Assembly: GCF_016026235.1 (NCBI RefSeq)
Contig: NZ_CP065613.1
Direction: 5' to 3' (one strand)
DNA: 64,000 nt
Source: Escherichia coli
GTDB taxonomy: Bacteria > Pseudomonadota > Gammaproteobacteria > Enterobacterales > Enterobacteriaceae
Numbering within the stretch: position 1 is the first letter of the stretch; every line of letters starts with the position of its first letter. Both the position numbers and the translations under genes were made by a program. The notes beneath the pieces were generated by a model. The model did no database searches. It had not been told where the DNA came from and saw only the letters and a list, made by a program, of their open reading frames with translations. Positions 1 through 46,195 of the stretch are shown here, one piece after another.

Positions 1-616
1 CAGCTCCTAACGCGAAAGGAATACGCCATCCCCACTCTCTGAGTGCAGCGTCTTCCATGGTGTGTTGTAAAACCACGACAACCAGTAGGGCTAGCAGTTG
101 TCCGCCGATCAACGTCACATACTGAAATGATGCGTAAAAACCTTTGCGCCCTTCAACGGCAACTTCACTCATATAGGTGGCGCTGGTGCCATATTCTCCG
201 CCAACGGATAATCCCTGAAATAAACGAGCGAAAAGCAATAATGCCGGAGCCCACGTACCTATAGTTTCATAACCTGGGAGGCAGGCGATAACCAGCGATC
301 CGAAACACATCATACACACCGATAACAGCATCGATTTTTTGCGACCATGTTTATCGGCTATGCGGCCAAATAGCCAACCGCCTATTGGGCGCATCAGGAA
401 TCCCGCAGCAAAAACACCTGCTGTTTGTAGTAGTTGAGTCGTCGTGTTCCCGGAAGGGAAGAAAATGTGGGCGAAGTAGAGTGAACAGAACGAGTAGACA
501 TAGAAATCGAACCACTCGACCAGATTACCTGAAGAGGCCCCCACAATCGCCCAAATGCGGCGACGAGTATCACTACTTGTCAGTTTGCTGTCTGCCGTTA
601 CAGTACTTTCAGCCAT
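1..616 (-). CDS. kgtP: alpha-ketoglutarate permease KgtP (MFS transporter), N-terminal part; gene runs off the window start
   Basis: Minus-strand translation from ATG at 616..614 gives [41 protein letters not shown]... with MFS motif [10 protein letters not shown]; located next to the 5S end of the rrn operon as in K-12. Confidence 0.85.
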
Positions 617-892
617 GCCATTATGTCTCCTGCCGTAATCCGATGCTTTTGTTGGTCGCTTTTGTTTATTTCTTTTGGTAAAGAAAATGTTATACATTTG
701 TTGCGTATCATTATGCAACCTTAACCATGAATTTAGTTAGCAGGAAAATGGTTATTGAGGAGCTTAAGGATAAATTTCTGGTAAGGAGGACACGTATGGA
801 AGTAGGCAAGTTGGGGAAACCGCATCCGTTGCTGAATCTGGCATATGTGGGAGTATAAGACGCGCAGCGTCGCATCAGGCATTTTTTTCTGC

Positions 893-931
893 GCCAATGC
901 AAAAAGGCCATCCGTCAGGATGGCCTTCTGC
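893..931 (-). terminator. rrn operon terminator hairpin downstream of 5S rRNA
   Basis: GC-rich inverted repeat AAGGCCATCC-GTCA-GGATGGCCTT next to a run of A/T, directly 3' of the 5S gene on the minus strand. Confidence 0.7.
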
Positions 932-939
932 TAAATTTG

Positions 940-1059
940 ATGCCTGGCAGTTCCCTACTCTCGCATGGGGAGACCCCACACTATCATCGGCGCTACGGCG
1001 TTTCACTTCTGAGTTCGGCATGGGGTCAGGTGGGACCACCGCGCTAAGGCCGCCAGGCA
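940..1059 (-). rRNA. rrfG: 5S ribosomal RNA
   Basis: Reverse complement reads TGCCTGGCGGCC...GAGAGTAGGGAACTGCCAGGCAT, the canonical E. coli 5S sequence, 120 nt. Confidence 0.95.
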
Positions 1060-1151
1060 AATTCTGTTTTATCAGACCGCTTCTGCGTTCTGATTTAATC
1101 TGTATCAGGCTGAAAATCTTCTCTCATCCGCCAAAACATCTTCGGCGTTGT

Positions 1152-12542: not shown

Positions 12543-13703
12543 ATGACATCGGAAAACCCGTTACTGGCGCTGCGAGAGAAAATCAGCGCGCTGGATGAAA
12601 AATTATTAGCATTACTGGCAGAGCGGCGCGAACTGGCCGTCGAGGTGGGAAAAGCCAAACTGCTCTCGCATCGCCCGGTACGTGATATTGATCGTGAACG
12701 CGATTTACTGGAAAGATTAATTACGCTCGGTAAAGCGCACCATCTGGACGCCCATTACATTACTCGCCTGTTCCAGCTCATCATTGAAGATTCCGTATTA
12801 ACTCAGCAGGCTTTGCTCCAACAACATCTCAATAAAATTAATCCGCACTCAGCACGCATCGCTTTTCTCGGCCCCAAAGGTTCTTATTCCCATCTTGCGG
12901 CGCGCCAGTATGCTGCCCGTCACTTTGAGCAATTCATTGAAAGTGGCTGCGCCAAATTTGCCGATATTTTTAATCAGGTGGAAACCGGCCAGGCCGACTA
13001 TGCCGTCGTACCGATTGAAAATACCAGCTCCGGTGCCATAAATGACGTTTACGATCTGCTGCAACATACCAGCTTGTCGATTGTTGGCGAGATGACGTTA
13101 ACTATCGACCATTGTTTGTTAGTCTCCGGCACGACTGATTTATCCACCATCAATACGGTCTACAGCCATCCGCAGCCATTCCAGCAATGCAGCAAATTCC
13201 TTAATCGTTATCCGCACTGGAAGATTGAATATACCGAAAGTACGTCTGCGGCAATGGAAAAGGTTGCACAGGCAAAATCACCGCATGTTGCTGCGTTGGG
13301 AAGCGAAGCTGGCGGCACTTTGTACGGTTTGCAGGTACTGGAGCGGATTGAAGCGAATCAGCGACAAAACTTCACCCGATTTGTGGTGTTGGCGCGTAAA
13401 GCCATTAACGTGTCTGATCAGGTTCCGGCGAAAACGACGTTGTTAATGGCGACCGGGCAACAAGCCGGTGCGCTGGTTGAAGCGTTGCTGGTACTGCGCA
13501 ACCACAATCTGATTATGACCCGTCTGGAATCACGCCCGATTCACGGTAATCCATGGGAAGAGATGTTTTATCTGGATATTCAGGCCAATCTTGAATCAGC
13601 GGAAATGCAAAAAGCATTGAAAGAGTTAGGGGAAATCACCCGTTCAATGAAGGTATTGGGCTGTTACCCAAGCAAGAACGTAGTGCCTGTTGATCCAACC
13701 TGA
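12543..13703 (+). CDS. pheA: bifunctional chorismate mutase / prephenate dehydratase
   Basis: 386 aa [39 protein letters not shown]... Confidence 0.95.
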
Positions 13704-13705
13704 TG

Positions 13706-13739
13706 AAAAAGTGCCGGATGATGTGAATCATCCGGCACT
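13706..13739. terminator. bidirectional terminator between convergent pheA and tyrA
   Basis: AAAAAGTGCCGGATGA-TGTGAA-TCATCCGGCACT palindrome flanked by A/T. Confidence 0.8.
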
Positions 13740-13745
13740 GGATTA

Positions 13746-14867
13746 TTACTGGCGATTGTCATTCGCCTGACGCAATAACACGCGGCTTTCACTCTGAAAA
13801 CGCTGTGCGTAATCGCCGAACCAGTGCTCCACCTTGCGGAAACTGTCAATAAACGCCTGCTTATCGCCCTGCTCCAGCAACTCAATCGCCTCGCCGAAAC
13901 GCTTATAGTAACGTTTGATTAACGCCAGATTACGCTCTGACGACATAATAATGTCGGCATAAAGCTGCGGATCCTGAGCGAACAGTCGCCCGACCATCGC
14001 CAGCTCAAGGCGGTAAATCGGCGAAGAGAGCGCCAGAAGTTGCTCAAGCTGAACATTTTCTTCTGCCAGGTGCAGGCCATAAGCAAAAGTGGCAAAGTGG
14101 CGCAACGCCTGGATAAACGCCATATTCTGATCATGTTCGACAGCACTAATGCGATGCAGTCGCGCGCCCCAGACCTGAATTTGCTCAAGAAACCATTGGT
14201 ACGCTTCTGGCTGGCGTCCATCACACCAGACCACGACCTGCTTCGCCAGACTGCCGCTATCCGGACCAAACATCGGGTGTAACCCCAGCACCGGGCCATC
14301 ATGCGCCGCCAGCATGGCCTGTAACGGCCCATTTTTCACTGATGCCAGATCGACCAGAATACAGTCTTGCGGTAAAGGCGGTAATTTGCCGATAACTTGC
14401 TCAGTAATGTGGATTGGCACACTAACAATCACCATTCCAGCATCGGCAACAATATCAGCCGCTCGATCCCAGTCATGTTGCTCCAGAATCCGCACCTGAT
14501 AACCCGAGAGTGTCAGCATCTTCTCGAACAGACGTCCCATCTGACCGCCGCCGCCAACGATAACTACCGGGCGTAACGCAGGACAAAGCGTTTTAAATCC
14601 TTTGTCGTTTTCACTGGAGTAAGATTCACGCATCACCCGACGCAAAACATCCTCAATCAGATCTGGCGGTACACCCAGAGCTTCCGCCTCTGCACGACGC
14701 GAGGCCAACATAGATGACTCGCGCTCCGGAACATAAATAGGCAGTCCAAAGCGGCTTTTCACCTCTCCCACTTCAGCAACCAGTTCCAGACGCTTCGCTA
14801 ATAAATTCAGCAGCGCTTTATCGACTTCATCAATTTGATCGCGTAATGCGGTCAATTCAGCAACCAT
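13746..14867 (-). CDS. tyrA: bifunctional chorismate mutase / prephenate dehydrogenase
   Basis: 373 aa [37 protein letters not shown]... Confidence 0.95.
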
Positions 14868-14877
14868 AATAAACCTC

Positions 14878-15948
14878 TTAAGCCACGCGAGCCGTCAGCT
14901 GCCCGTTCAGATCCTGATGAATTTCACGCAGCAAGGCATCGGTCATTTCCCAGCTAATGCAGGCATCGGTTACGGATACACCGTATTTCATTTCACTGCG
15001 CGGTTGCTCGGAAGACTGATTGCCCTCGTGGATATTACTTTCGATCATCAGACCAATAATTGAGCGATTGCCATCTTTGATTTGAGCAACCACGGATTCT
15101 GCCACCGCAGGCTGACGGCGATAATCTTTATTGGAATTACCGTGGCTGCAATCTACCATCAGAGACGGGCGCAGTCCCGCCTGTTCCATCTCTTTTTCAC
15201 ATTGCGCAACATCCGCAGGGCTATAGTTCGGCGCTTTACCACCGCGCAGGATGACATGCCCGTCCGGATTCCCCTGAGTTTGTAGCAACGCAACCTGCCC
15301 TGCCTGGTTAATGCCAACAAAACGATGCGGCTGGGCGGCGGCGCGCATAGCGTTAATTGCTGTTGCCAGACTGCCGTCGGTGCCGTTTTTAAAACCAACC
15401 GGCATGGAAAGCCCGGAGGCCATTTCACGGTGAGTTTGCGATTCCGTTGTACGAGCACCAATGGCTGACCAGCTAAACAGATCGCCCAGGTATTGCGGGC
15501 TATTCGGATCTAACGCTTCCGTCGCCAGTGGCAGTCCCATATTCACCAGCTCAAGCAGCAATTTACGCGCGATCTGCAGCCCGGCTTCTACATCAAAAGA
15601 GCCATCCATATGGGGATCGTTAATTAACCCTTTCCAGCCGACAGTGGTACGGGGTTTTTCAAAATAGACGCGCATTACCAGATAGAGGCTATCGCTGACC
15701 TCTGCGGCAAGGGCTTTAAATCGACGAGCATATTCCAGAGCAGTTTCCGGATCATGAATGGAACAAGGACCACATACTACCAGCAGACGAGGATCGCGCC
15801 CGGCGATAATATCTGAAATGGTTTTACGCGAGTCAGCAATCTGGGCTTCTTGTTGCAGGCTTAATGGAAAAGCGGCCTTCAGTTGTGCCGGAGTCATTAA
15901 AACCTGTTCGTCGGTAATATGTACGTTATTCAGCGCGTCTTTTTGCAT
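14878..15948 (-). CDS. aroF: DAHP synthase, Tyr-sensitive
   Basis: ORF 14878..16017; native start taken at [27 protein letters not shown] (356 aa). Confidence 0.93.
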
Positions 15949-16042
15949 GATGGCGATCCTGTTTATGCTCGTTTGCGATAGTTGATCCTCAGCGAGGATG
16001 ACGTAACGATAACACATAAAGTAAAGTTTTCAATCCATATTT

Positions 16043-16112
16043 CGTACATTTTTCTTTACATAAGCAATTTATTCGCGCTTTAAACCCTTGCTTCTGTATA
16101 GATAAATTTACA
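16043..16112 (-). promoter_or_regulatory. aroF promoter region with TyrR-box-like palindromes
   Basis: TGTAAAGAAAAATGTACG (minus strand) and TGTATAGATAAATTTACA resemble the TyrR box TGTAAA-N6-TTTACA upstream of aroF. Confidence 0.6.
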
Positions 16113-16157
16113 CCACCTTTGAAAGCAATCCGCTATGCTTTGAAAAAGGAGAAAGAA

Positions 16158-16313
16158 ATGATGAAAAAGTTTATCGCCCCCTTGTTGGCTTTACTGGTTA
16201 GCGGATGCCAGATTGATCCTTATACTCACGCGCCAACCTTGACCAGCACCGACTGGTATGATGTTGGTATGGAAGATGCGATATCGGGCAGCGCCATAAA
16301 AGATGACGATGCA
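16158..16313 (+). pseudogene. yfiL: yfiL-like lipoprotein gene, 5' part only, cut by IS1
   Basis: AAGGAG RBS then MMKKFIAPLLALLVSGCQIDPYTHAPTLTSTDWYDVGMEDAISGSAIKDDDA; reading frame runs directly into the IS1 terminal inverted repeat at 16314. Confidence 0.7.
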
Positions 16314-16328
16314 GGTAATGACTCCAAC

Positions 16329-16832
16329 TTATTGATAGTGTTTTATGTTCAGATAATGCCCGATGACTTTGTCATGCAGCTCCACCGATTTTGAGAACGA
16401 CAGCGACTTCCGTCCCAGCCGTGCCAGGTGCTGCCTCAGATTCAGGTTATGCCGCTCAATTCGCTGCGTATATCGCTTGCTGATTACGTGCAGCTTTCCC
16501 TTCAGGCGGGATTCATACAGCGGCCAGCCATCCGTCATCCATATCACCACGTCAAAGGGTGACAGCAGGCTCATAAGACGCCCCAGCGTCGCCATAGTGC
16601 GTTCACCGAATACGTGCGCAACAACCGTCTTCCGGAGACTGTCATACGCGTAAAACAGCCAGCGCTGGCGCGATTTAGCCCCGACATAGCCCCACTGTTC
16701 GTCCATTTCCGCGCAGACGATGACGTCACTGCCCGGCTGTATGCGCGAGGTTACCGACTGCGGCCTGAGTTTTTTAAGTGACGTAAAATCGTGTTGAGGC
16801 CAACGCCCATAATGCGGGCAGTTGCCCGGCAT
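16329..16832 (-). CDS. insB: IS1 InsB (transposase catalytic part; expressed as InsAB' by frameshift)
   Basis: 167 aa ORF overlapping insA 3' end in the -1 frame. Confidence 0.9.
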
Positions 16833-17026
16833 CCAACGCCATTCATGGCCATATCAATGATTTTCTGGTGCGTACCGGGTTGAGAAGCGGTGTAAGTGAA
16901 CTGCAGTTGCCATGTTTTACGGCAGTGAGAGCAGAGATAGCGCTGATGTCCGGCGGTGCTTTTGCCGTTACGCACCACCCCGTCAGTAGCTGAACAGGAG
17001 GGACAGCTGATAGAAACAGAAGCCAC
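16751..17026 (-). CDS. insA: IS1 InsA (DNA-binding repressor / N-terminal part of transposase)
   Basis: 91 aa [43 protein letters not shown]... Confidence 0.93.
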
Positions 17027-17272
17027 TGGAGCACCTCAAAAACACCATCATACACTAAATCAGTAAGTTGGCAGCATCACCAAAGGGGCTGATGAAAATG
17101 CCAGCACAATACGATTAAATTAATTAAAACCCCACAAATAAATTAAACATAAGATTTTACTCATTATGTTTTATTTCTCACAATGATGACGACTGCATGA
17201 AATAATGATATTTTAATGAGCATTCAGAAAAAATATCGATGCATTTCGAGCGAAGATGGTGGGGATCCCTGA

Positions 17273-17791
17273 ATGCGTTTTTCTCACCGACTGTTCTTAC
17301 TGCTGATTATCCTGCTGACGGGAGCACCAATACTCGCTCAGGAGCCTTCTGACGTTGCGAAAAACGTGCGTATGATGGTTTCCGGTATTGTCAGTTACAC
17401 TCGCTGGCCTGCGCTATCAGGGCCACCAAAGTTATGTATCTTTTCATCTTCACGTTTTAGTACCGCCCTACAAGAGAATGCCGCGACATCTTTGCCTTAT
17501 CTGCCTGTCATCATTCACACTCAACAAGAGGCGATGATTTCAGGCTGCAATGGTTTTTATTTTGGCAACGAGTCACCGACATTCCAGATGGAATTAACCG
17601 AACAATATCCGTCAAAGGCGTTATTATTAATTGCCGAACAAAATACCGAGTGCATTATTGGTAGCGCCTTTTGTCTGATCATCCACAATAATGACGTCAG
17701 ATTTGCCGTAAACCTGGATGCCTTATCGCGTAGCGGTGTAAAGGTCAACCCGGATGTCTTGATGCTCGCACGGAAGAAAAATGATGGATAA
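17273..17791 (+). CDS. yfiR: periplasmic repressor of DgcN (YfiR)
   Basis: 172 aa with signal peptide [24 protein letters not shown]; first gene of yfiRNB. Confidence 0.9.
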
Positions 17792-19007
17792 CGATAATTC
17801 TCTTAATAAGCGCCCCACGTTTAAAAGAGCATTACGCAACATCAGTATGACCAGCATATTTATCACTATGATGCTGATCTGGTTGCTGCTTTCCGTGACC
17901 TCGGTGCTGACCCTGAAACAGTACGCGCAAAAAAACCTGGCACTGACAGCAGCAACAATGACTTACAGTCTGGAAGCAGCTGTCGTTTTTGCCGATGGCC
18001 CTGCAGCAACTGAAACACTGGCAGCGCTGGGCCAGCAAGGGCAATTTTCAACTGCAGAAGTACGTGATAAGCAGCAAAATATTCTGGCATCCTGGCATTA
18101 CACCCGTAAGGATCCAGGCGATACTTTCAGCAATTTCATAAGCCACTGGCTCTTCCCTGCCCCCATCATTCAGCCGATTCGTCACAATGGTGAAACCATT
18201 GGCGAAGTACGCTTAACCGCTCGCGACAGTTCAATCAGCCATTTTATCTGGTTTTCGCTCGCCGTACTGACCGGTTGTATTCTGCTGGCATCAGGAATCG
18301 CAATTACCCTCACCCGCCATTTGCACAATGGCCTGGTGGAAGCACTGAAAAATATCACCGATGTCGTACATGATGTGCGTTCCAACCGCAATTTTTCCCG
18401 ACGAGTTTCGGAAGAACGTATAGCTGAGTTTCACCGCTTCGCTCTCGACTTCAACAGTCTGCTGGATGAAATGGAAGAGTGGCAGCTTCGTTTACAGGCC
18501 AAAAATGCGCAGCTTCTGCGTACCGCGCTACATGACCCATTAACCGGGCTGGCTAACCGCGCAGCGTTTCGTAGCGGCATCAATACGTTGATGAACAATT
18601 CCGCTGCCCGAAAAACGTCGGCGTTACTATTTCTTGATGGCGATAATTTCAAATATATCAATGATACCTGGGGTCATGCGACGGGCGATAGAGTCTTGAT
18701 TGAAATCGCAAAACGGTTAGCTGAATTTGGCGGGCTACGACATAAAGCATACCGCCTGGGCGGCGATGAATTCGCGATGGTGCTCTATGGTGTACAGTCG
18801 GAATCTGAAGTGCAGCAGATATGCTCAGCACTGACACAAATCTTTAATCTCCCGTTTGATCTTAATAATGGCCATCAGACCACCATGACATTAAGCATTG
18901 GTTACGCAATGACCATTGCGCACGCTTCTGCGGAAAAATTACAAGAGCTGGCCGATCACAATATGTATCAGGCCAAACACCAGCGTGCCGAAAAGCTGGT
19001 GAGATAA
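17781..19007 (+). CDS. dgcN: membrane diguanylate cyclase DgcN (YfiN), HAMP-GGDEF
   Basis: 408 aa; transmembrane N-terminus; GGDEF motif (RLGGDEF). Confidence 0.92.
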
Positions 19008-19022
19008 CAAGGATATATCGAT

Positions 19023-19505
19023 ATGATAAAGCACCTGGTAGCACCCCTGATTTTCACCTCACTAATACTGACTGGCTGCCAGTCCCCTCAGGGAAAGTTT
19101 ACTCCTGAGCAAGTCGCCGCTATGCAATCTTATGGATTTACTGAATCCGCCGGCGACTGGTCGCTGGGCTTATCAGATGCCATTCTGTTCGCAAAAAATG
19201 ACTACAAATTGCTCCCGGAAAGCCAGCAACAGATCCAAACCATGGCAGCCAAATTGGCCTCGACAGGGCTAACACATGCCCGTATGGATGGACACACCGA
19301 TAACTATGGTGAAGACAGTTACAACGAAGGCTTATCATTGAAACGGGCGAATGTCGTGGCCGATGCATGGGCTATGGGTGGACAAATTCCACGCAGCAAT
19401 CTCACCACACAGGGTTTAGGAAAAAAATATCCCATAGCCAGTAACAAGACCGCCCAGGGCCGCGCCGAGAACCGCCGCGTCGCAGTGGTGATTACTACCC
19501 CTTAA
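19023..19505 (+). CDS. yfiB: OmpA-family lipoprotein YfiB
   Basis: 160 aa; lipobox LTGC; OmpA-like C-terminus (NRRVAVVI). Confidence 0.92.
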   Translation: MIKHLVAPLIFTSLILTGCQSPQGKFTPEQVAAMQSYGFTESAGDWSLGLSDAILFAKNDYKLLPESQQQIQTMAAKLASTGLTHARMDGHTDNYGEDSYNEGLSLKRANVVADAWAMGGQIPRSNLTTQGLGKKYPIASNKTAQGRAENRRVAVVITTP

Positions 19506-19581
19506 AACACGAGCAAACAGATAAAAAAAGGGCCAGCCAATTGGCCAGCCCTTCTTAACAGGATGTCGCTTAAGCGAAATC

Positions 19582-19932
<351 letters not shown>

Positions 19933-19970
19933 TTAATCTCTTATCCTGGGTAAACTGATATCTCGGGGGC

Positions 19971-20738
19971 TTACGCCATCCCATCATGTTTATGTTGCTG
20001 TTGTGCGTGTTCCGTTTTGAACTCCGCCAGCAACCTTGCTTGCTCTTCAGTCAGAGCCAGGTTTTCCAGAAGTTCAGGTCTTCTAAGCCAAGTACGGCCC
20101 AGCGACTGTTTCAAACGCCAGCGACGTATCTCGGCATGGTTGCCCGACAGTAACACTGGCGGAACTTCCATCCCTTCTAACACCTCAGGCCGCGTATAGT
20201 GCGGGCAATCCAGCAATCCTTCAGCAAAGGAATCTTCCGTTGCCGAGGCTTCATGTCCCAGTACTCCCGGAATAAACCGGGAAACGGAGTCAATCAGCGT
20301 CATTGCTGGTAACTCACCACCACTGAGAACGTAATCGCCGATTGACCATTCTTCGTCAATTTCGGTTTGGATCACGCGCTCATCTATACCTTCGTAGCGA
20401 CCGCACACCAGAATCAATTTTTGATTCGTTGCCAGTTCGCTGACGCCCGCTTGATCAAGCTTGCGTCCCTGTGGTGAAAGATAAATCACCTTTGCGCCTT
20501 CACCCGCCGCGGCTTTTGCTGCATGAATGGCGTCCCGCAAGGGTTGCACCATCATTAACATCCCCGGTCCGCCGCCATAAGGACGATCGTCCACGGTACG
20601 GTGCCGGTCATGCGTGAAATCGCGAGGACTCCAGCTCTGGATGCTCAGCAGGCCATTTTTAACTGCCCGGCCAGTTACCCCGTAATCGGTAATTGCGCGG
20701 AACATTTCAGGAAACAGGCTAATTATGCCAATCCACAT
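19971..20738 (-). CDS. trmD: tRNA (guanine37-N1)-methyltransferase
   Basis: 255 aa [30 protein letters not shown]... Confidence 0.96.
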
Positions 20739-21662: not shown

Positions 21663-21720
21663 TTACTGATTTCTGGAGAAAATGCAATCAGCAGTTAATA
21701 ACTCTGTCGCATAAGGTCAT

Positions 21721-23082
21721 TTAGCGACCAGGAAATCCCGGTGGCATCATCCCTTTCATGCTTCTCATCATCTTCGCCATTCCGCCCTTCTTCATTTTCT
21801 TCATCATGCGCTGCATGTCGTCGAACTGTTTCAGAAGACGGTTAACGTCCTGCACCTGCATACCGCAACCGGCAGCAATACGGCGTTTACGCGAACCTTT
21901 GATGATTTCTGGCTTAGCGCGTTCTTTCATCGTCATCGAGTTGATGATGGCTTCCATACGCACCAGCACTTTATCGTCCATCTGCGACTTGACATTATCC
22001 GGGATCTGCCCCATGCCCGGCAGCTTGCCCATCAGGCTAGCCATGCCGCCCATATTTTTCATCTGGCGCAGCTGCTCAAGAAAGTCGTTGAGATCGAAGC
22101 CGTCGCCTTTTTTTAGCTTGCTGGCTAATTTCTCTGCCTGCGCGCGGTCAACTTTGCTTTCGATATCTTCGATCAGCGACAGTACGTCGCCCATGCCGAG
22201 AATACGCGACGCAATGCGGTCCGGATGGAACGGCTCCAGCGCCTCAGTTTTCTCGCCAACACCGAGGAACTTGATCGGTTTGCCAGTGATGTGACGAATA
22301 GAGAGCGCCGCACCGCCGCGGGCATCGCCGTCCACTTTGGTCAACACTACGCCGGTAAGCGGTAACGCTTCATTGAATGCTTTTGCCGTATTGGCCGCAT
22401 CCTGACCGGTCATGGCGTCAACCACAAACAGGGTTTCAACTGGGTTAATCGACGCATGGACTTGTTTGATCTCGTCCATCATCGCTTCGTCAACGTGCAG
22501 ACGACCAGCGGTATCCACCAGCAGCACGTCGTAGAATTTCAGTTTGGCTTCTTTCAGCGCCGCGTTAACGATATCTACCGGCTTCTGACCAACATCAGAA
22601 GGGAAGAAATCAACGCCCACCTGCTCAGCCAGCGTCTCAAGCTGTTTGATTGCCGCCGGGCGATAGACGTCGGCAGAAACCACCAGCACTTTCTTCTTGT
22701 GCTTCTCGCGCAGGAACTTACCGAGTTTACCAACGCTGGTTGTTTTACCAGCACCTTGCAGGCCCGCCATCAGTACGACCGCAGGCGGTTGCGCAGCCAG
22801 GTTCAGGGTCTGGTTCTCTTCGCCCATCGCCGCAACCAGTTCGTTACGGACGATTTTGACGAACTCCTGCCCCGGCGTCAGGCTCTTATTAACTTCATGA
22901 CCAACCGCTTTCTCTTTTACGCGATTGATAAACTCACGCACTACCGGCAGAGCGACGTCCGCCTCCAGCAGCGCCATGCGCACTTCGCGCAGCGTATCTT
23001 TTACGTTGTCTTCAGTGAGGCGTCCACGGCCACTGATATTGCGCAGCGTGCGCGACAAACGATCGGTTAAATTATCAAACAT
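21721..23082 (-). CDS. ffh: signal recognition particle protein Ffh
   Basis: 453 aa; GTPase motifs (GLQGAGKTT, DTAGR); Met-rich C-terminal M domain. Confidence 0.96.
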   Translation of the reverse strand: MFDNLTDRLSRTLRNISGRGRLTEDNVKDTLREVRMALLEADVALPVVREFINRVKEKAVGHEVNKSLTPGQEFVKIVRNELVAAMGEENQTLNLAAQPPAVVLMAGLQGAGKTTSVGKLGKFLREKHKKKVLVVSADVYRPAAIKQLETLAEQVGVDFFPSDVGQKPVDIVNAALKEAKLKFYDVLLVDTAGRLHVDEAMMDEIKQVHASINPVETLFVVDAMTGQDAANTAKAFNEALPLTGVVLTKVDGDARGGAALSIRHITGKPIKFLGVGEKTEALEPFHPDRIASRILGMGDVLSLIEDIESKVDRAQAEKLASKLKKGDGFDLNDFLEQLRQMKNMGGMASLMGKLPGMGQIPDNVKSQMDDKVLVRMEAIINSMTMKERAKPEIIKGSRKRRIAAGCGMQVQDVNRLLKQFDDMQRMMKKMKKGGMAKMMRSMKGMMPPGFPGR

Positions 23083-30879: not shown

Positions 30880-31242
30880 GGGGCTGATTCTGGATTCGAC
30901 GGGATTTGCGAAACCCAAGGTGCATGCCGAGGGGCGGTTGGCCTCGTAAAAAGCCGCAAAAAATAGTCGCAAACGACGAAAACTACGCTTTAGCAGCTTA
31001 ATAACCTGCTTAGAGCCCTCTCTCCCTAGCCTCCGCTCTTAGGACGGGGATCAAGAGAGGTCAAACCCAAAAGAGATCGCGTGGAAGCCCTGCCTGGGGT
31101 TGAAGCGTTAAAACTTAATCAGGCTAGTTTGTTAGTGGCGTGTCCGTCCGCAGCTGGCAAGCGAATGTAAAGACTGACTAAGCATGTAGTACCGAGGACG
31201 TAGGAATTTCGGACGCGGGTTCAACTCCCGCCAGCTCCACCA
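30880..31242 (+). ncRNA. ssrA: tmRNA (SsrA), 363 nt
   Basis: Begins GGGGCTGATTCTGGATTCGACGGGATTTGCG, contains the tag-encoding segment GCAAACGACGAAAACTACGCTTTAGCAGCTTAA (ANDENYALAA) and ends with the tRNA-like GGTTCAACTCCCGCCAGCTCCACCA. Confidence 0.97.
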
Positions 31243-31445: not shown

Positions 31446-32687
31446 ATGGCAAGAAAAACCAAGCCGTTAACCGATACGGAAATCAAAGCCGCCAAACCTA
31501 AAGATGCCGATTACCAGCTGTATGATGGTGACGGGCTTACTCTGTTAATCAAGTCCAGTGGTAGTAAGCTCTGGCAGTTCCGTTACTATCGACCTCTGAC
31601 AAAGCAGCGAACCAAGCAGAGCTTCGGTGCCTACCCTGCCGTCTCACTTTCTGATGCGCGTAAACTCAGAGCCGAATCTCGAGTTTTATTGGCAAAAGAT
31701 ATTGATCCTCAGGAACATCAGAAAGAACAGGTGAGGAATTCTCAAGAGGCCAAAACCAACACCTTCTTGTTAGTTGCCGAGCGTTGGTGGAATGTGAAGA
31801 AAGCCAGCGTGACAGAGGACTATGCCGACGATATCTGGCGCTCGCTTGAGAGAGATGTTTTTCCAGCAATCGGTGATATCAGTGTCACTGAGATTAAGGC
31901 TCATACTCTGGTTAAAGCAGTTCAGCCGGTTCAGGCTAGAGGTGCATTAGAAACTGTTCGCCGTCTTTGTCAGCGTATTAACGAAGTCATGATTTATGCG
32001 CAGAACACGGGCCTGATTGATGCGGTTCCCAGCGTAAATATCGGAAAAGCGTTCGAGAAGCCTCAGAAAAAGAACATGCCGAGCATCCGGCCTGATCAAC
32101 TGCCTCAACTGATGCAGACGATGCGAACAGCAAACATCAGCCAATCAACACGATGCCTGTTCATGTGGCAGCTTCTTACTATTACCCGTCCTGCCGAAGC
32201 CGCTGAAGCTCGATGGGATGAGATCGATTTTGAAGCTAAAGAATGGAAAATTCCTGCAGCTCGAATGAAGATGAACCGGGACCATACGGTTCCATTGTCT
32301 GATGGAGCTCTCGCTATTCTGGCAATGATGAAGTCACTCAGTGGTGGCCGAGAATTTATCTTTCCTAGTCGAATCAAACCAACCCAGCCGATGAATAGCC
32401 AAACAGTGAATGCAGCACTCAAACGTGCTGGATTGGGAGGCGTTCTCGTTTCTCATGGCTTGCGTTCTATCGCCAGTACCGCCCTTAATGAACAAGGCTT
32501 CCCACCTGATGTTATTGAAGCGGCGCTGGCTCATGTGGACAAAAATGAAGTACGTCGCGCTTACAATCGCAGCGATTATCTTGAGCAGAGACGCCCGATG
32601 ATGCAGTGGTGGGCAAACCTTATAAAAGCGGCAGATAGTATTCCTACCGTTTGTAACGAAGTAGCAGGTCTTAGATTGGTTGGGTAG
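31446..32687 (+). CDS. intA: P4/CP4-57-type tyrosine integrase (site-specific recombinase)
   Basis: ORF 31410..32687; start taken at MARKTKPLTDTEIKAAKPKDADYQLYDGDGL (413 aa); sits directly 3' of ssrA, the classic attachment site of CP4-57-like elements; C-terminal HGLRS and Y-containing catalytic region. Confidence 0.9.
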   Translation: MARKTKPLTDTEIKAAKPKDADYQLYDGDGLTLLIKSSGSKLWQFRYYRPLTKQRTKQSFGAYPAVSLSDARKLRAESRVLLAKDIDPQEHQKEQVRNSQEAKTNTFLLVAERWWNVKKASVTEDYADDIWRSLERDVFPAIGDISVTEIKAHTLVKAVQPVQARGALETVRRLCQRINEVMIYAQNTGLIDAVPSVNIGKAFEKPQKKNMPSIRPDQLPQLMQTMRTANISQSTRCLFMWQLLTITRPAEAAEARWDEIDFEAKEWKIPAARMKMNRDHTVPLSDGALAILAMMKSLSGGREFIFPSRIKPTQPMNSQTVNAALKRAGLGGVLVSHGLRSIASTALNEQGFPPDVIEAALAHVDKNEVRRAYNRSDYLEQRRPMMQWWANLIKAADSIPTVCNEVAGLRLVG

Positions 32688-45959: not shown

Positions 45960-46195
45960 CTTTCACATTTTCATCCTCCGCTATCCGCCCTGATCAGTTA
46001 CCACAGCTAATGCAGACAATGCGAAATGCCAACATTATTTTGCCTACTCGATGCTTGTTCATGTGGCAACTTCTAACTATCTCACGACCCGCAGAAGCGG
46101 CAGAAGCTCGTTGGGATGAGATCGATTTTGAAGCTAAAGAATGGAAAATTCCTGCAGCTCGAATGAAGATGAACCGGGACCATACGGTTCCGCTA
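45960..46195 (+). pseudogene. truncated second copy of a P4-type integrase (internal fragment only)
   Basis: Encodes ...IRPDQLPQLMQTMRNANIILPTRCLFMWQLLTISRPAEAAEARWDEIDFEAKEWKIPAARMKMNRDHTVPL, matching residues ~215-285 of the intact integrase at 31446..32687; 80 bp (46112..46191) are identical to 32214..32293; no N- or C-terminal part present. Confidence 0.85.

Follow-up and report, generated by a model that had tools for sequence, protein, structure and literature searches.

A complete IS1 element adjoining a 168-bp deletion in yfiL, upstream of an intact yfiRNB operon in Escherichia coli

In the 64-kb window, by which we mean the whole stretch of Escherichia coli DNA analysed here, yfiL is split by a complete IS1 element, and the absence of a target duplication around this element is explained by a 168-bp deletion of yfiL that adjoins it. 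The most likely history, which we consider probable, is an IS1 insertion at the 9-bp sequence AAAGGGGCT in the 3' part of yfiL, followed by a leftward adjacent deletion mediated by the transposase. The structure is an ordinary example of a long-known type of event, and the allele is already present in public assemblies.

The IS1 element and the remnants of yfiL

The IS1 family is recognised by a length of ~768 bp and imperfect inverted repeats of ~23 bp at the termini, beginning with GGT(A/G)ATG, by insA and insB' joined through a programmed -1 frameshift at an A6C site, by near-identity with a reference isoform, and by an 8-9-bp direct target duplication, and all of these features except the last are found here (Table 1). 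The element begins with GGTAATGACTCCAACTTATTGAT at 16314 and runs to ...GGCAGCATCACC at 17081, both boundaries being canonical and the two ends reading GGTAATGACTCCAACTTATTGAT and, in reverse complement, GGTGATGCTGCCAACTTACTGAT. A single base of the 768 separates it from IS1A of K-12 (NC_000913.3 19796-20563). On the minus strand, the A6C site (AAAAAAC) occupies 16769-16775, and the reconstructed InsAB' fusion is 232 aa long and free of stops. In addition, NCBIfam transpos_IS1 matches both parts of the transposase, and the Pfam domains on the called genes are Zn_ribbon_InsA, HTH_Tnp_IS1 and DDE_Tnp_IS1 (PF03811, PF12759, PF03400). Since the element is complete and nearly identical to K-12 IS1A, it encodes a working transposase frame, which is directed leftwards and points away from yfiR. 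These results bear out the first-pass annotation of this DNA, which had called a complete IS1 with flanks that are not a direct repeat: the flanks GACGATGCA and AAAGGGGCT differ and share neither an 8-bp nor a 9-bp repeat. Nevertheless, membership of the IS1 family stands, because it is a simple insertion, and not the element as such, that a duplication signals, and all other structural features tested agree with IS1. A second IS1 copy, or any other repeated IS, was not found in the 64-kb window.

Table 1. Features of the yfiL-yfiRNB locus in the window, and IS1-bounded deletions in other E. coli strains (for the deletions, positions are counted from the start of yfiL)
Feature	Position	Strand	Basis or remark
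yfiL 5' fragment, codons 1-52	16158..16313	+	aligned to yfiL nt 1-156 of FDAARGOS_943 and K-12
Hybrid ORF, 78 aa and stop (YfiL 1-52 and 26 IS1-encoded residues)	16158..16394	+	ORF list
Left 9-bp flank GACGATGCA, yfiL nt 148-156	16305..16313	.	alignment to intact loci
IS1 of IS1A type, complete, 768 bp	16314..17081	-	767/768 identical to K-12 IS1A
IRR end of IS1	16314-16336		terminal inverted repeat
insB' reading frame	16329..16832	-	ORF list, K-12 comparison, NCBIfam
insA, 91 aa	16751..17026	-	ORF list, K-12 comparison, NCBIfam
IRL end of IS1	17059-17081		terminal inverted repeat
yfiL 3' remnant, nt 325-366, 42 nt	17082..17123	+	codons 109-121 (KGADENASTIRLN) and stop
Right 9-bp flank AAAGGGGCT, yfiL nt 325-333	17082-17090		first 9 bp of yfiL 3' remnant
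yfiL-yfiR spacer, 149 bp, complete	17124..17272	+	collinear with K-12 and FDAARGOS_943
Sigma-70-like site, the sole one on the plus strand in the scan	17177-17206	+	promoter scan
yfiR, intact, 172 aa	17273..17791	+	1 aa difference from K-12
dgcN (yfiN), intact, 408 aa, GGDEF present	17781..19007	+	4 aa differences from K-12
yfiB, intact, 160 aa	19023..19505	+	1 aa difference from K-12
Deletion in DS26-1	334 to 1049		IS1 at 2992-3759 of L013
Deletion in 2018-11-3CC	335 to 1087		2602-3378 of L016
Deletion in 2018-02-2CC and PSS-16	329 to 1035		IS1 at 2596-3363 of L017 (2018-02-2CC)
Deletion in the O6:H16 ETEC group and others	357 to 931		IS1 at 2624-3391 of L018 (99-3165)
Deletion in FG92-1	300 to 931		IS1 at 2958-3725 of L014; right junction common to the ETEC group

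The reference for yfiL was FDAARGOS_943, which is the closest intact locus with 99.9% identity, and K-12 was aligned as well. In both alignments yfiL nt 157-324 (168 bp, codons 53-108) are absent from the window and IS1 stands in their place; the comparison with the K-12 yfiL-yfiR region, which the first-pass annotation had suggested, finds nothing else missing. The edges of the deletion coincide with both IS1 ends to the base, and the deletion is wholly intragenic in yfiL. The break follows nt 156, i.e. 52 codons, in line with the earlier estimate of ~52. What is left of the 5' part encodes the signal peptide, the lipobox LLVSGC and 35 mature residues, and it matches positions 1-53 of the 124 in NCBIfam PRK11443 (DUF2799 lipoprotein) with 79.6 bits against a cut-off of 124. 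Because this match is partial and below the cut-off, yfiL is truncated: it is a pseudogene fragment and not a functional member of its family. The appropriate annotation of yfiL is that of a pseudogene, interrupted by IS1 and short of 168 bp. In the window itself little is at stake, as the inactivated gene, yfiL, is of unknown function and the adjoining c-di-GMP module is unaffected in sequence.

The size of the loss is confirmed by a search with both flanks joined without IS1. This IS-less query of 833 bases was run against 5,426 complete E. coli genomes. Its coverage reaches 80% or more in 5,360 of them, and in all matches listed it spans 1001 bases, so that the window is 168 bases short. 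No 168-bp deletion without IS1 was present among the matches listed in this search, the best match consisting of two pieces, and the idea that IS1 landed in a yfiL allele already carrying the deletion was rejected on this ground. A shift of the boundaries that would restore a duplication was rejected too, since both termini of IS1 are canonical and the loss of 168 bp is real; on the correct boundaries, a duplication accompanied by an intact yfiL 3' part was not found. Moreover, the window is collinear with K-12 2,725,131-2,757,352 across the site, for 16 kb left of IS1 and 15 kb right of it, which excludes an inversion or a larger rearrangement. Thus, the absent duplication is here no reason to assume a large rearrangement.

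One may argue that the locus is misassembled, with a collapsed IS1 repeat hiding, for example, two IS1 copies that bracket other DNA, or an inversion. IS1 is indeed multicopy in these genomes, and the left junction recurs in three short-read assemblies whose contigs break inside this IS1, as is expected of a multicopy element. However, both junctions and the 768-bp IS1 are found with zero mismatches in two multi-megabase contigs: that of GCA_900449985.1 (4.56 Mb) is identical to the window over 6.2 kb, and the independent GCA_031665325.1 contains both junctions and the whole IS1 in an identical stretch of 3.5 kb. In addition, an inversion is excluded by flanks that are collinear with K-12 on both sides. 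A misassembly is therefore largely refuted already, and we regard it as extremely improbable. The 78-aa hybrid protein is called in identical form in four NCBI assemblies, GCA_900449985.1 among them, and the lineage with this allele also includes GCA_001907385/395/535. Neither junction occurs in the 5,426 complete E. coli genomes, and the left junction has zero matches in the GTDB species-representative genomes. The structure is no assembly artefact but belongs to one uncommon lineage, in which it is fixed.

Origin of the missing duplication

The first-pass annotation had attributed the non-matching flanks to a deletion tied to IS1, either adjacent to the element or between two IS1 copies, and this part of its interpretation stands, the endpoints of the deletion being the IS1 ends. 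Of these two routes, an adjacent deletion is the one that we favour. IS1 would first have inserted at AAAGGGGCT (nt 325-333), a 9-bp target in the 3' part of yfiL, and duplicated it. The IS1 transposase would then have linked the IRR end, on the left of this element, to nearby nt 148-156, where GACGATGCA would be the target of the deletion-forming end. Such an intramolecular, replicative adjacent deletion would lose the left copy of the duplication together with 168 bp of yfiL (168 + 9 bp) and retain IS1 and the right copy of the duplication, and AAAGGGGCT at 17082-17090 is presumably this surviving copy. We infer both the order of the events and the use of the transposase from the junctions. 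The structure has the features of an adjacent deletion in that the endpoint is an IS end, the IS is retained and the host DNA is collinear on both sides. It shares with known cases that the IS is kept, that the deletion starts at the IS end, that host DNA is lost and that there is no duplication, but the deletion in the window is unusually small (168 bp) and lies within one gene. IS1-mediated adjacent deletions were reportedly described by Reif and Saedler in the 1970s for the gal region.

More recent data indicate that inter-IS recombination and adjacent deletions are the main sources of IS copies without a duplication (PMC11708052). [quoted passage not shown] At the locus itself, simple IS1 insertions with 8- or 9-bp duplications are found in other E. 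coli, in yfiL at nt 114-122, 241-248 and 348-355 and in yfiR at 571-578 and 744-752, and these show the normal outcome when no deletion follows.

Strain DS26-1 provides a counterpart to the window. Its IS1 is 768/768 identical to the window copy and has the same orientation; AAAGGGGCT (yfiL 325-333) borders it on the left, and a 716-bp deletion follows on the right. This is the mirror image expected if the target duplication of AAAGGGGCT were halved by a deletion from either end. DS26-1 is an unrelated strain. Since its flanks are only 97.4% identical to the window, and all genomes that share its junction belong to the DS26-1 lineage, the two insertions would be independent, and AAAGGGGCT would then have served as a target more than once, the insertion not being inherited. 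The probability of a chance match is not negligible, being a few percent or more by a rough estimate, and the site lies within a cluster of IS1 junctions at nt 325-356. The intermediate, with IS1 at 325-333, both copies of the duplication and the full yfiL 5' part, was not found in the window lineage. Three assemblies with a DS26-1-type hybrid protein were considered as a source of the precursor and set aside, as all three belong to the DS26-1 lineage. The junction strings that mark the allele and precursor states are GGCAAAAAGGGGCT/GGTAATGACTCC, GACGATGCA/GGTAATG and CATCACC/AAAGGGGCT.

Recombination between two IS1 copies would yield an identical final sequence. In this scenario, two direct copies at yfiL nt ~148-156 and ~325-333 recombined in a RecA-dependent manner, with the loss of one copy and 168 bp, and the exact product is a single IS1 between non-matching 9-mers. 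Inter-IS recombination is a recognised source of missing duplications (PMC11708052), and the yfiL/yfiR locus collects IS1 in other strains, one of which, NT1N31, has two copies. However, three events would be required, i.e. two insertions within 168 bp and a recombination, against two for an insertion and an adjacent deletion, and an IS1 at or near yfiL nt 148-156 is present in no searched E. coli genome. The element shows no sign of being a chimera (767/768 to IS1A, 768/768 to DS26-1), though identical parents would leave none. We consider recombination between two copies possible but rather unlikely, and we would assign the structure to an adjacent deletion instead.

A third route would be a single step, in which IS1 integrated without a duplication while the 168 bp were lost, for example into a break during the deletion. 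Such a route has been proposed for de novo IS movements amid deletions without duplications (PMC11708052), and the sequence holds nothing against it. Nevertheless, that proposal was made for IS5 and IS481 in the context of large rearrangements and is unproven even there, the 14 of 14 events in the same paper were an insertion with an adjacent deletion (PMC11708052), and the mirror junction of DS26-1 is not predicted by a single step. Accordingly, we hold a single step to be very unlikely.

The yfiRNB operon and IS1-bounded deletions of yfiR in other strains

The three genes of the operon follow IS1 in the order yfiR-dgcN-yfiB with K-12 lengths, and all score above their NCBIfam cut-offs: 168 bits against 85 for sequest_YfiR, 502 against 325 for DgcN/YfiN, and 349 against 155 for YfiB. 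The right end of IS1 is 191 bp from the yfiR ATG (17273), close to the ~190 bp given by the first-pass annotation. That annotation had further supposed that native promoter sequence of yfiRNB might have been removed, and here its interpretation does not hold: the deletion is limited to yfiL codons 53-108, and both the 149-bp spacer and the sigma-70-like site in it are kept. The spacer has seven substitutions relative to K-12 and one relative to FDAARGOS_943, with nothing deleted. Hence the putative promoter DNA proximal to yfiR is not removed, because the last 42 nt of yfiL, the whole spacer, yfiR, dgcN and yfiB are intact.

What IS1 might do to the operon is a question of read-through. A scan and a fold of the yfiL-yfiR spacer found no convincing intrinsic terminator, the fold being a weak A/U-rich hairpin, and in the wild type transcription may, given this, continue from yfiL into yfiR. 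IS1 is a polar element, so that transcription from the yfiL promoter would no longer read into yfiR, and any effect of IS1 on yfiRNB would be limited to this block. A hybrid outward promoter at the right end of IS1 was not found either, as the promoter scan gave no plus-strand site at the junction; TTGGCA at the IS1 end was considered by eye as a -35 element and rejected, with no acceptable -10 element 16-18 nt downstream. A literature search on yfiL/yfiR co-transcription and on IS1 in the yfiL locus returned nothing useful. The native yfi promoter reportedly has weak activity in K-12 (PMC4992967).

YfiR is the periplasmic inhibitor of DgcN/YfiN, and yfiR loss-of-function mutants, known as small-colony variants of P. 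aeruginosa and from E. coli and Salmonella, have a derepressed diguanylate cyclase YfiN/DgcN (PMC4992967). The operon that adjoins the window IS1 is the same; unlike in these mutants, however, yfiR is intact in the window, and the sequence predicts no derepression phenotype. The window likewise differs from S. flexneri-type dgcN, which has a premature stop (PMC11327459), in that its dgcN is intact, and this speaks against an S. flexneri-type genome.

Among the E. coli genomes searched, yfiR is not fully covered in 62 of 5,426, against 14 of 5,426 for yfiB. At least four or five distinct IS1-bounded deletions start from the 3' end of yfiL (nt 299-356) in other strains (Table 1), removing the spacer and yfiR and keeping dgcN-yfiB, with the first dgcN codons lost in three cases, and in these deletions the IRL end of IS1 abuts dgcN. 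Junctions of IS1 are concentrated in the last part of yfiL, at nt 325, 328, 333, 334, 348-355 and 356. A yfiL-3'/IS1 junction of this kind is found in 41 genomes, in a search for IS1 copies in the locus that is biased to the orientation of the window IS1 and with counts inflated by clonal groups. According to a rough estimate based on the copy number of IS1, the overall number of IS1 matches in the locus would not in itself be excessive. The window resembles the yfiR-deleting strains in the orientation of IS1 and in the region of yfiL that is used (junctions at nt 299-356), and DS26-1 uses the very same 9-mer, AAAGGGGCT; however, the deletions in those strains run rightwards, whereas that in the window runs leftwards and spares the operon.

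These deletions may be natural yfiR-null, derepression alleles. If dgcN is still expressed in them, the strains would correspond in nature to the high-c-di-GMP variants without yfiR that are studied in Pseudomonas and uropathogenic E. coli. It is equally possible that dgcN is silent, the native promoter region being deleted too. The IS1-bounded yfiR deletions are thus a lead and not a finding. It is conceivable, though in our judgement unlikely, that the 3' end of yfiL by the AT-rich spacer is a preferred IS1 site from which deletions repeatedly strip yfiR in natural lineages, and that the window copy belongs to the same class, with its deletion in the harmless direction and an active IS1 191 bp from yfiR. 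If this were true, IS1 would act as a recurrent natural switch for c-di-GMP signalling.

Several strains show further states of the locus. FG92-1 and the ETEC group have a common right IS1 junction (3725/3726 of L014 and 3391/3392 of L018), which lies in yfiR, 932 nt from the start of yfiL, and their left junctions differ, at yfiL nt 299 and 356, respectively. FG92-1 looks as if the same IS1B copy had given rise to another deletion, this time leftwards, and the yfiL locus may undergo stepwise erosion from both IS1 ends. In NT1N31, an inverted IS1 pair (1501-2268 and 3016-3783 of L006) brackets yfiR. One copy is situated at the yfiL 3' end and its partner in the dgcN 5' part, both are flanked by separate duplications of 8 or 9 bp, and such a pair could invert the yfiR segment. 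In CP026774.1 (around 1100-1455 of L027), a 4.40-Mb chromosome encoding the same YfiR protein, a divergent IS1-family element ends 47 nt upstream of yfiR; it has no blastn match to IS1A and adjoins an IS3-family element. In this genome dgcN and yfiB are truncated, and the locus is in an IS-rich, Shigella-like state.

Other features of the window

The aroF-yfiL-yfiRNB segment (13500-20500) is a minority allele with 99.9% identity to FDAARGOS_943, and its left flank is only ~97.4% identical to K-12-type strains. The best matches of the first 25 kb of the window are different strains, at ~99%, which suggests that the window is a recombination mosaic. In addition, the rpsP-ffh spacer (21706-21721) is ~126 bp shorter than that of K-12 (2,746,307-2,746,434), and it probably lacks a repetitive extragenic element that is present in K-12. 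Just past ssrA (tmRNA, 30880-31242) and a K-12-like intA, a 22-kb island (32640-54865) replaces most of the K-12 CP4-57. In matching genomes this island is annotated with a NACHT-domain protein, a YfjI-family protein, a GTPase and DUF932 proteins, and it is present near full length with at least 99% identity in only ~9 of 5,426 E. coli genomes. There is also a second integrase-like segment, 45983-46191, which shares 85% identity with 32085-32293.
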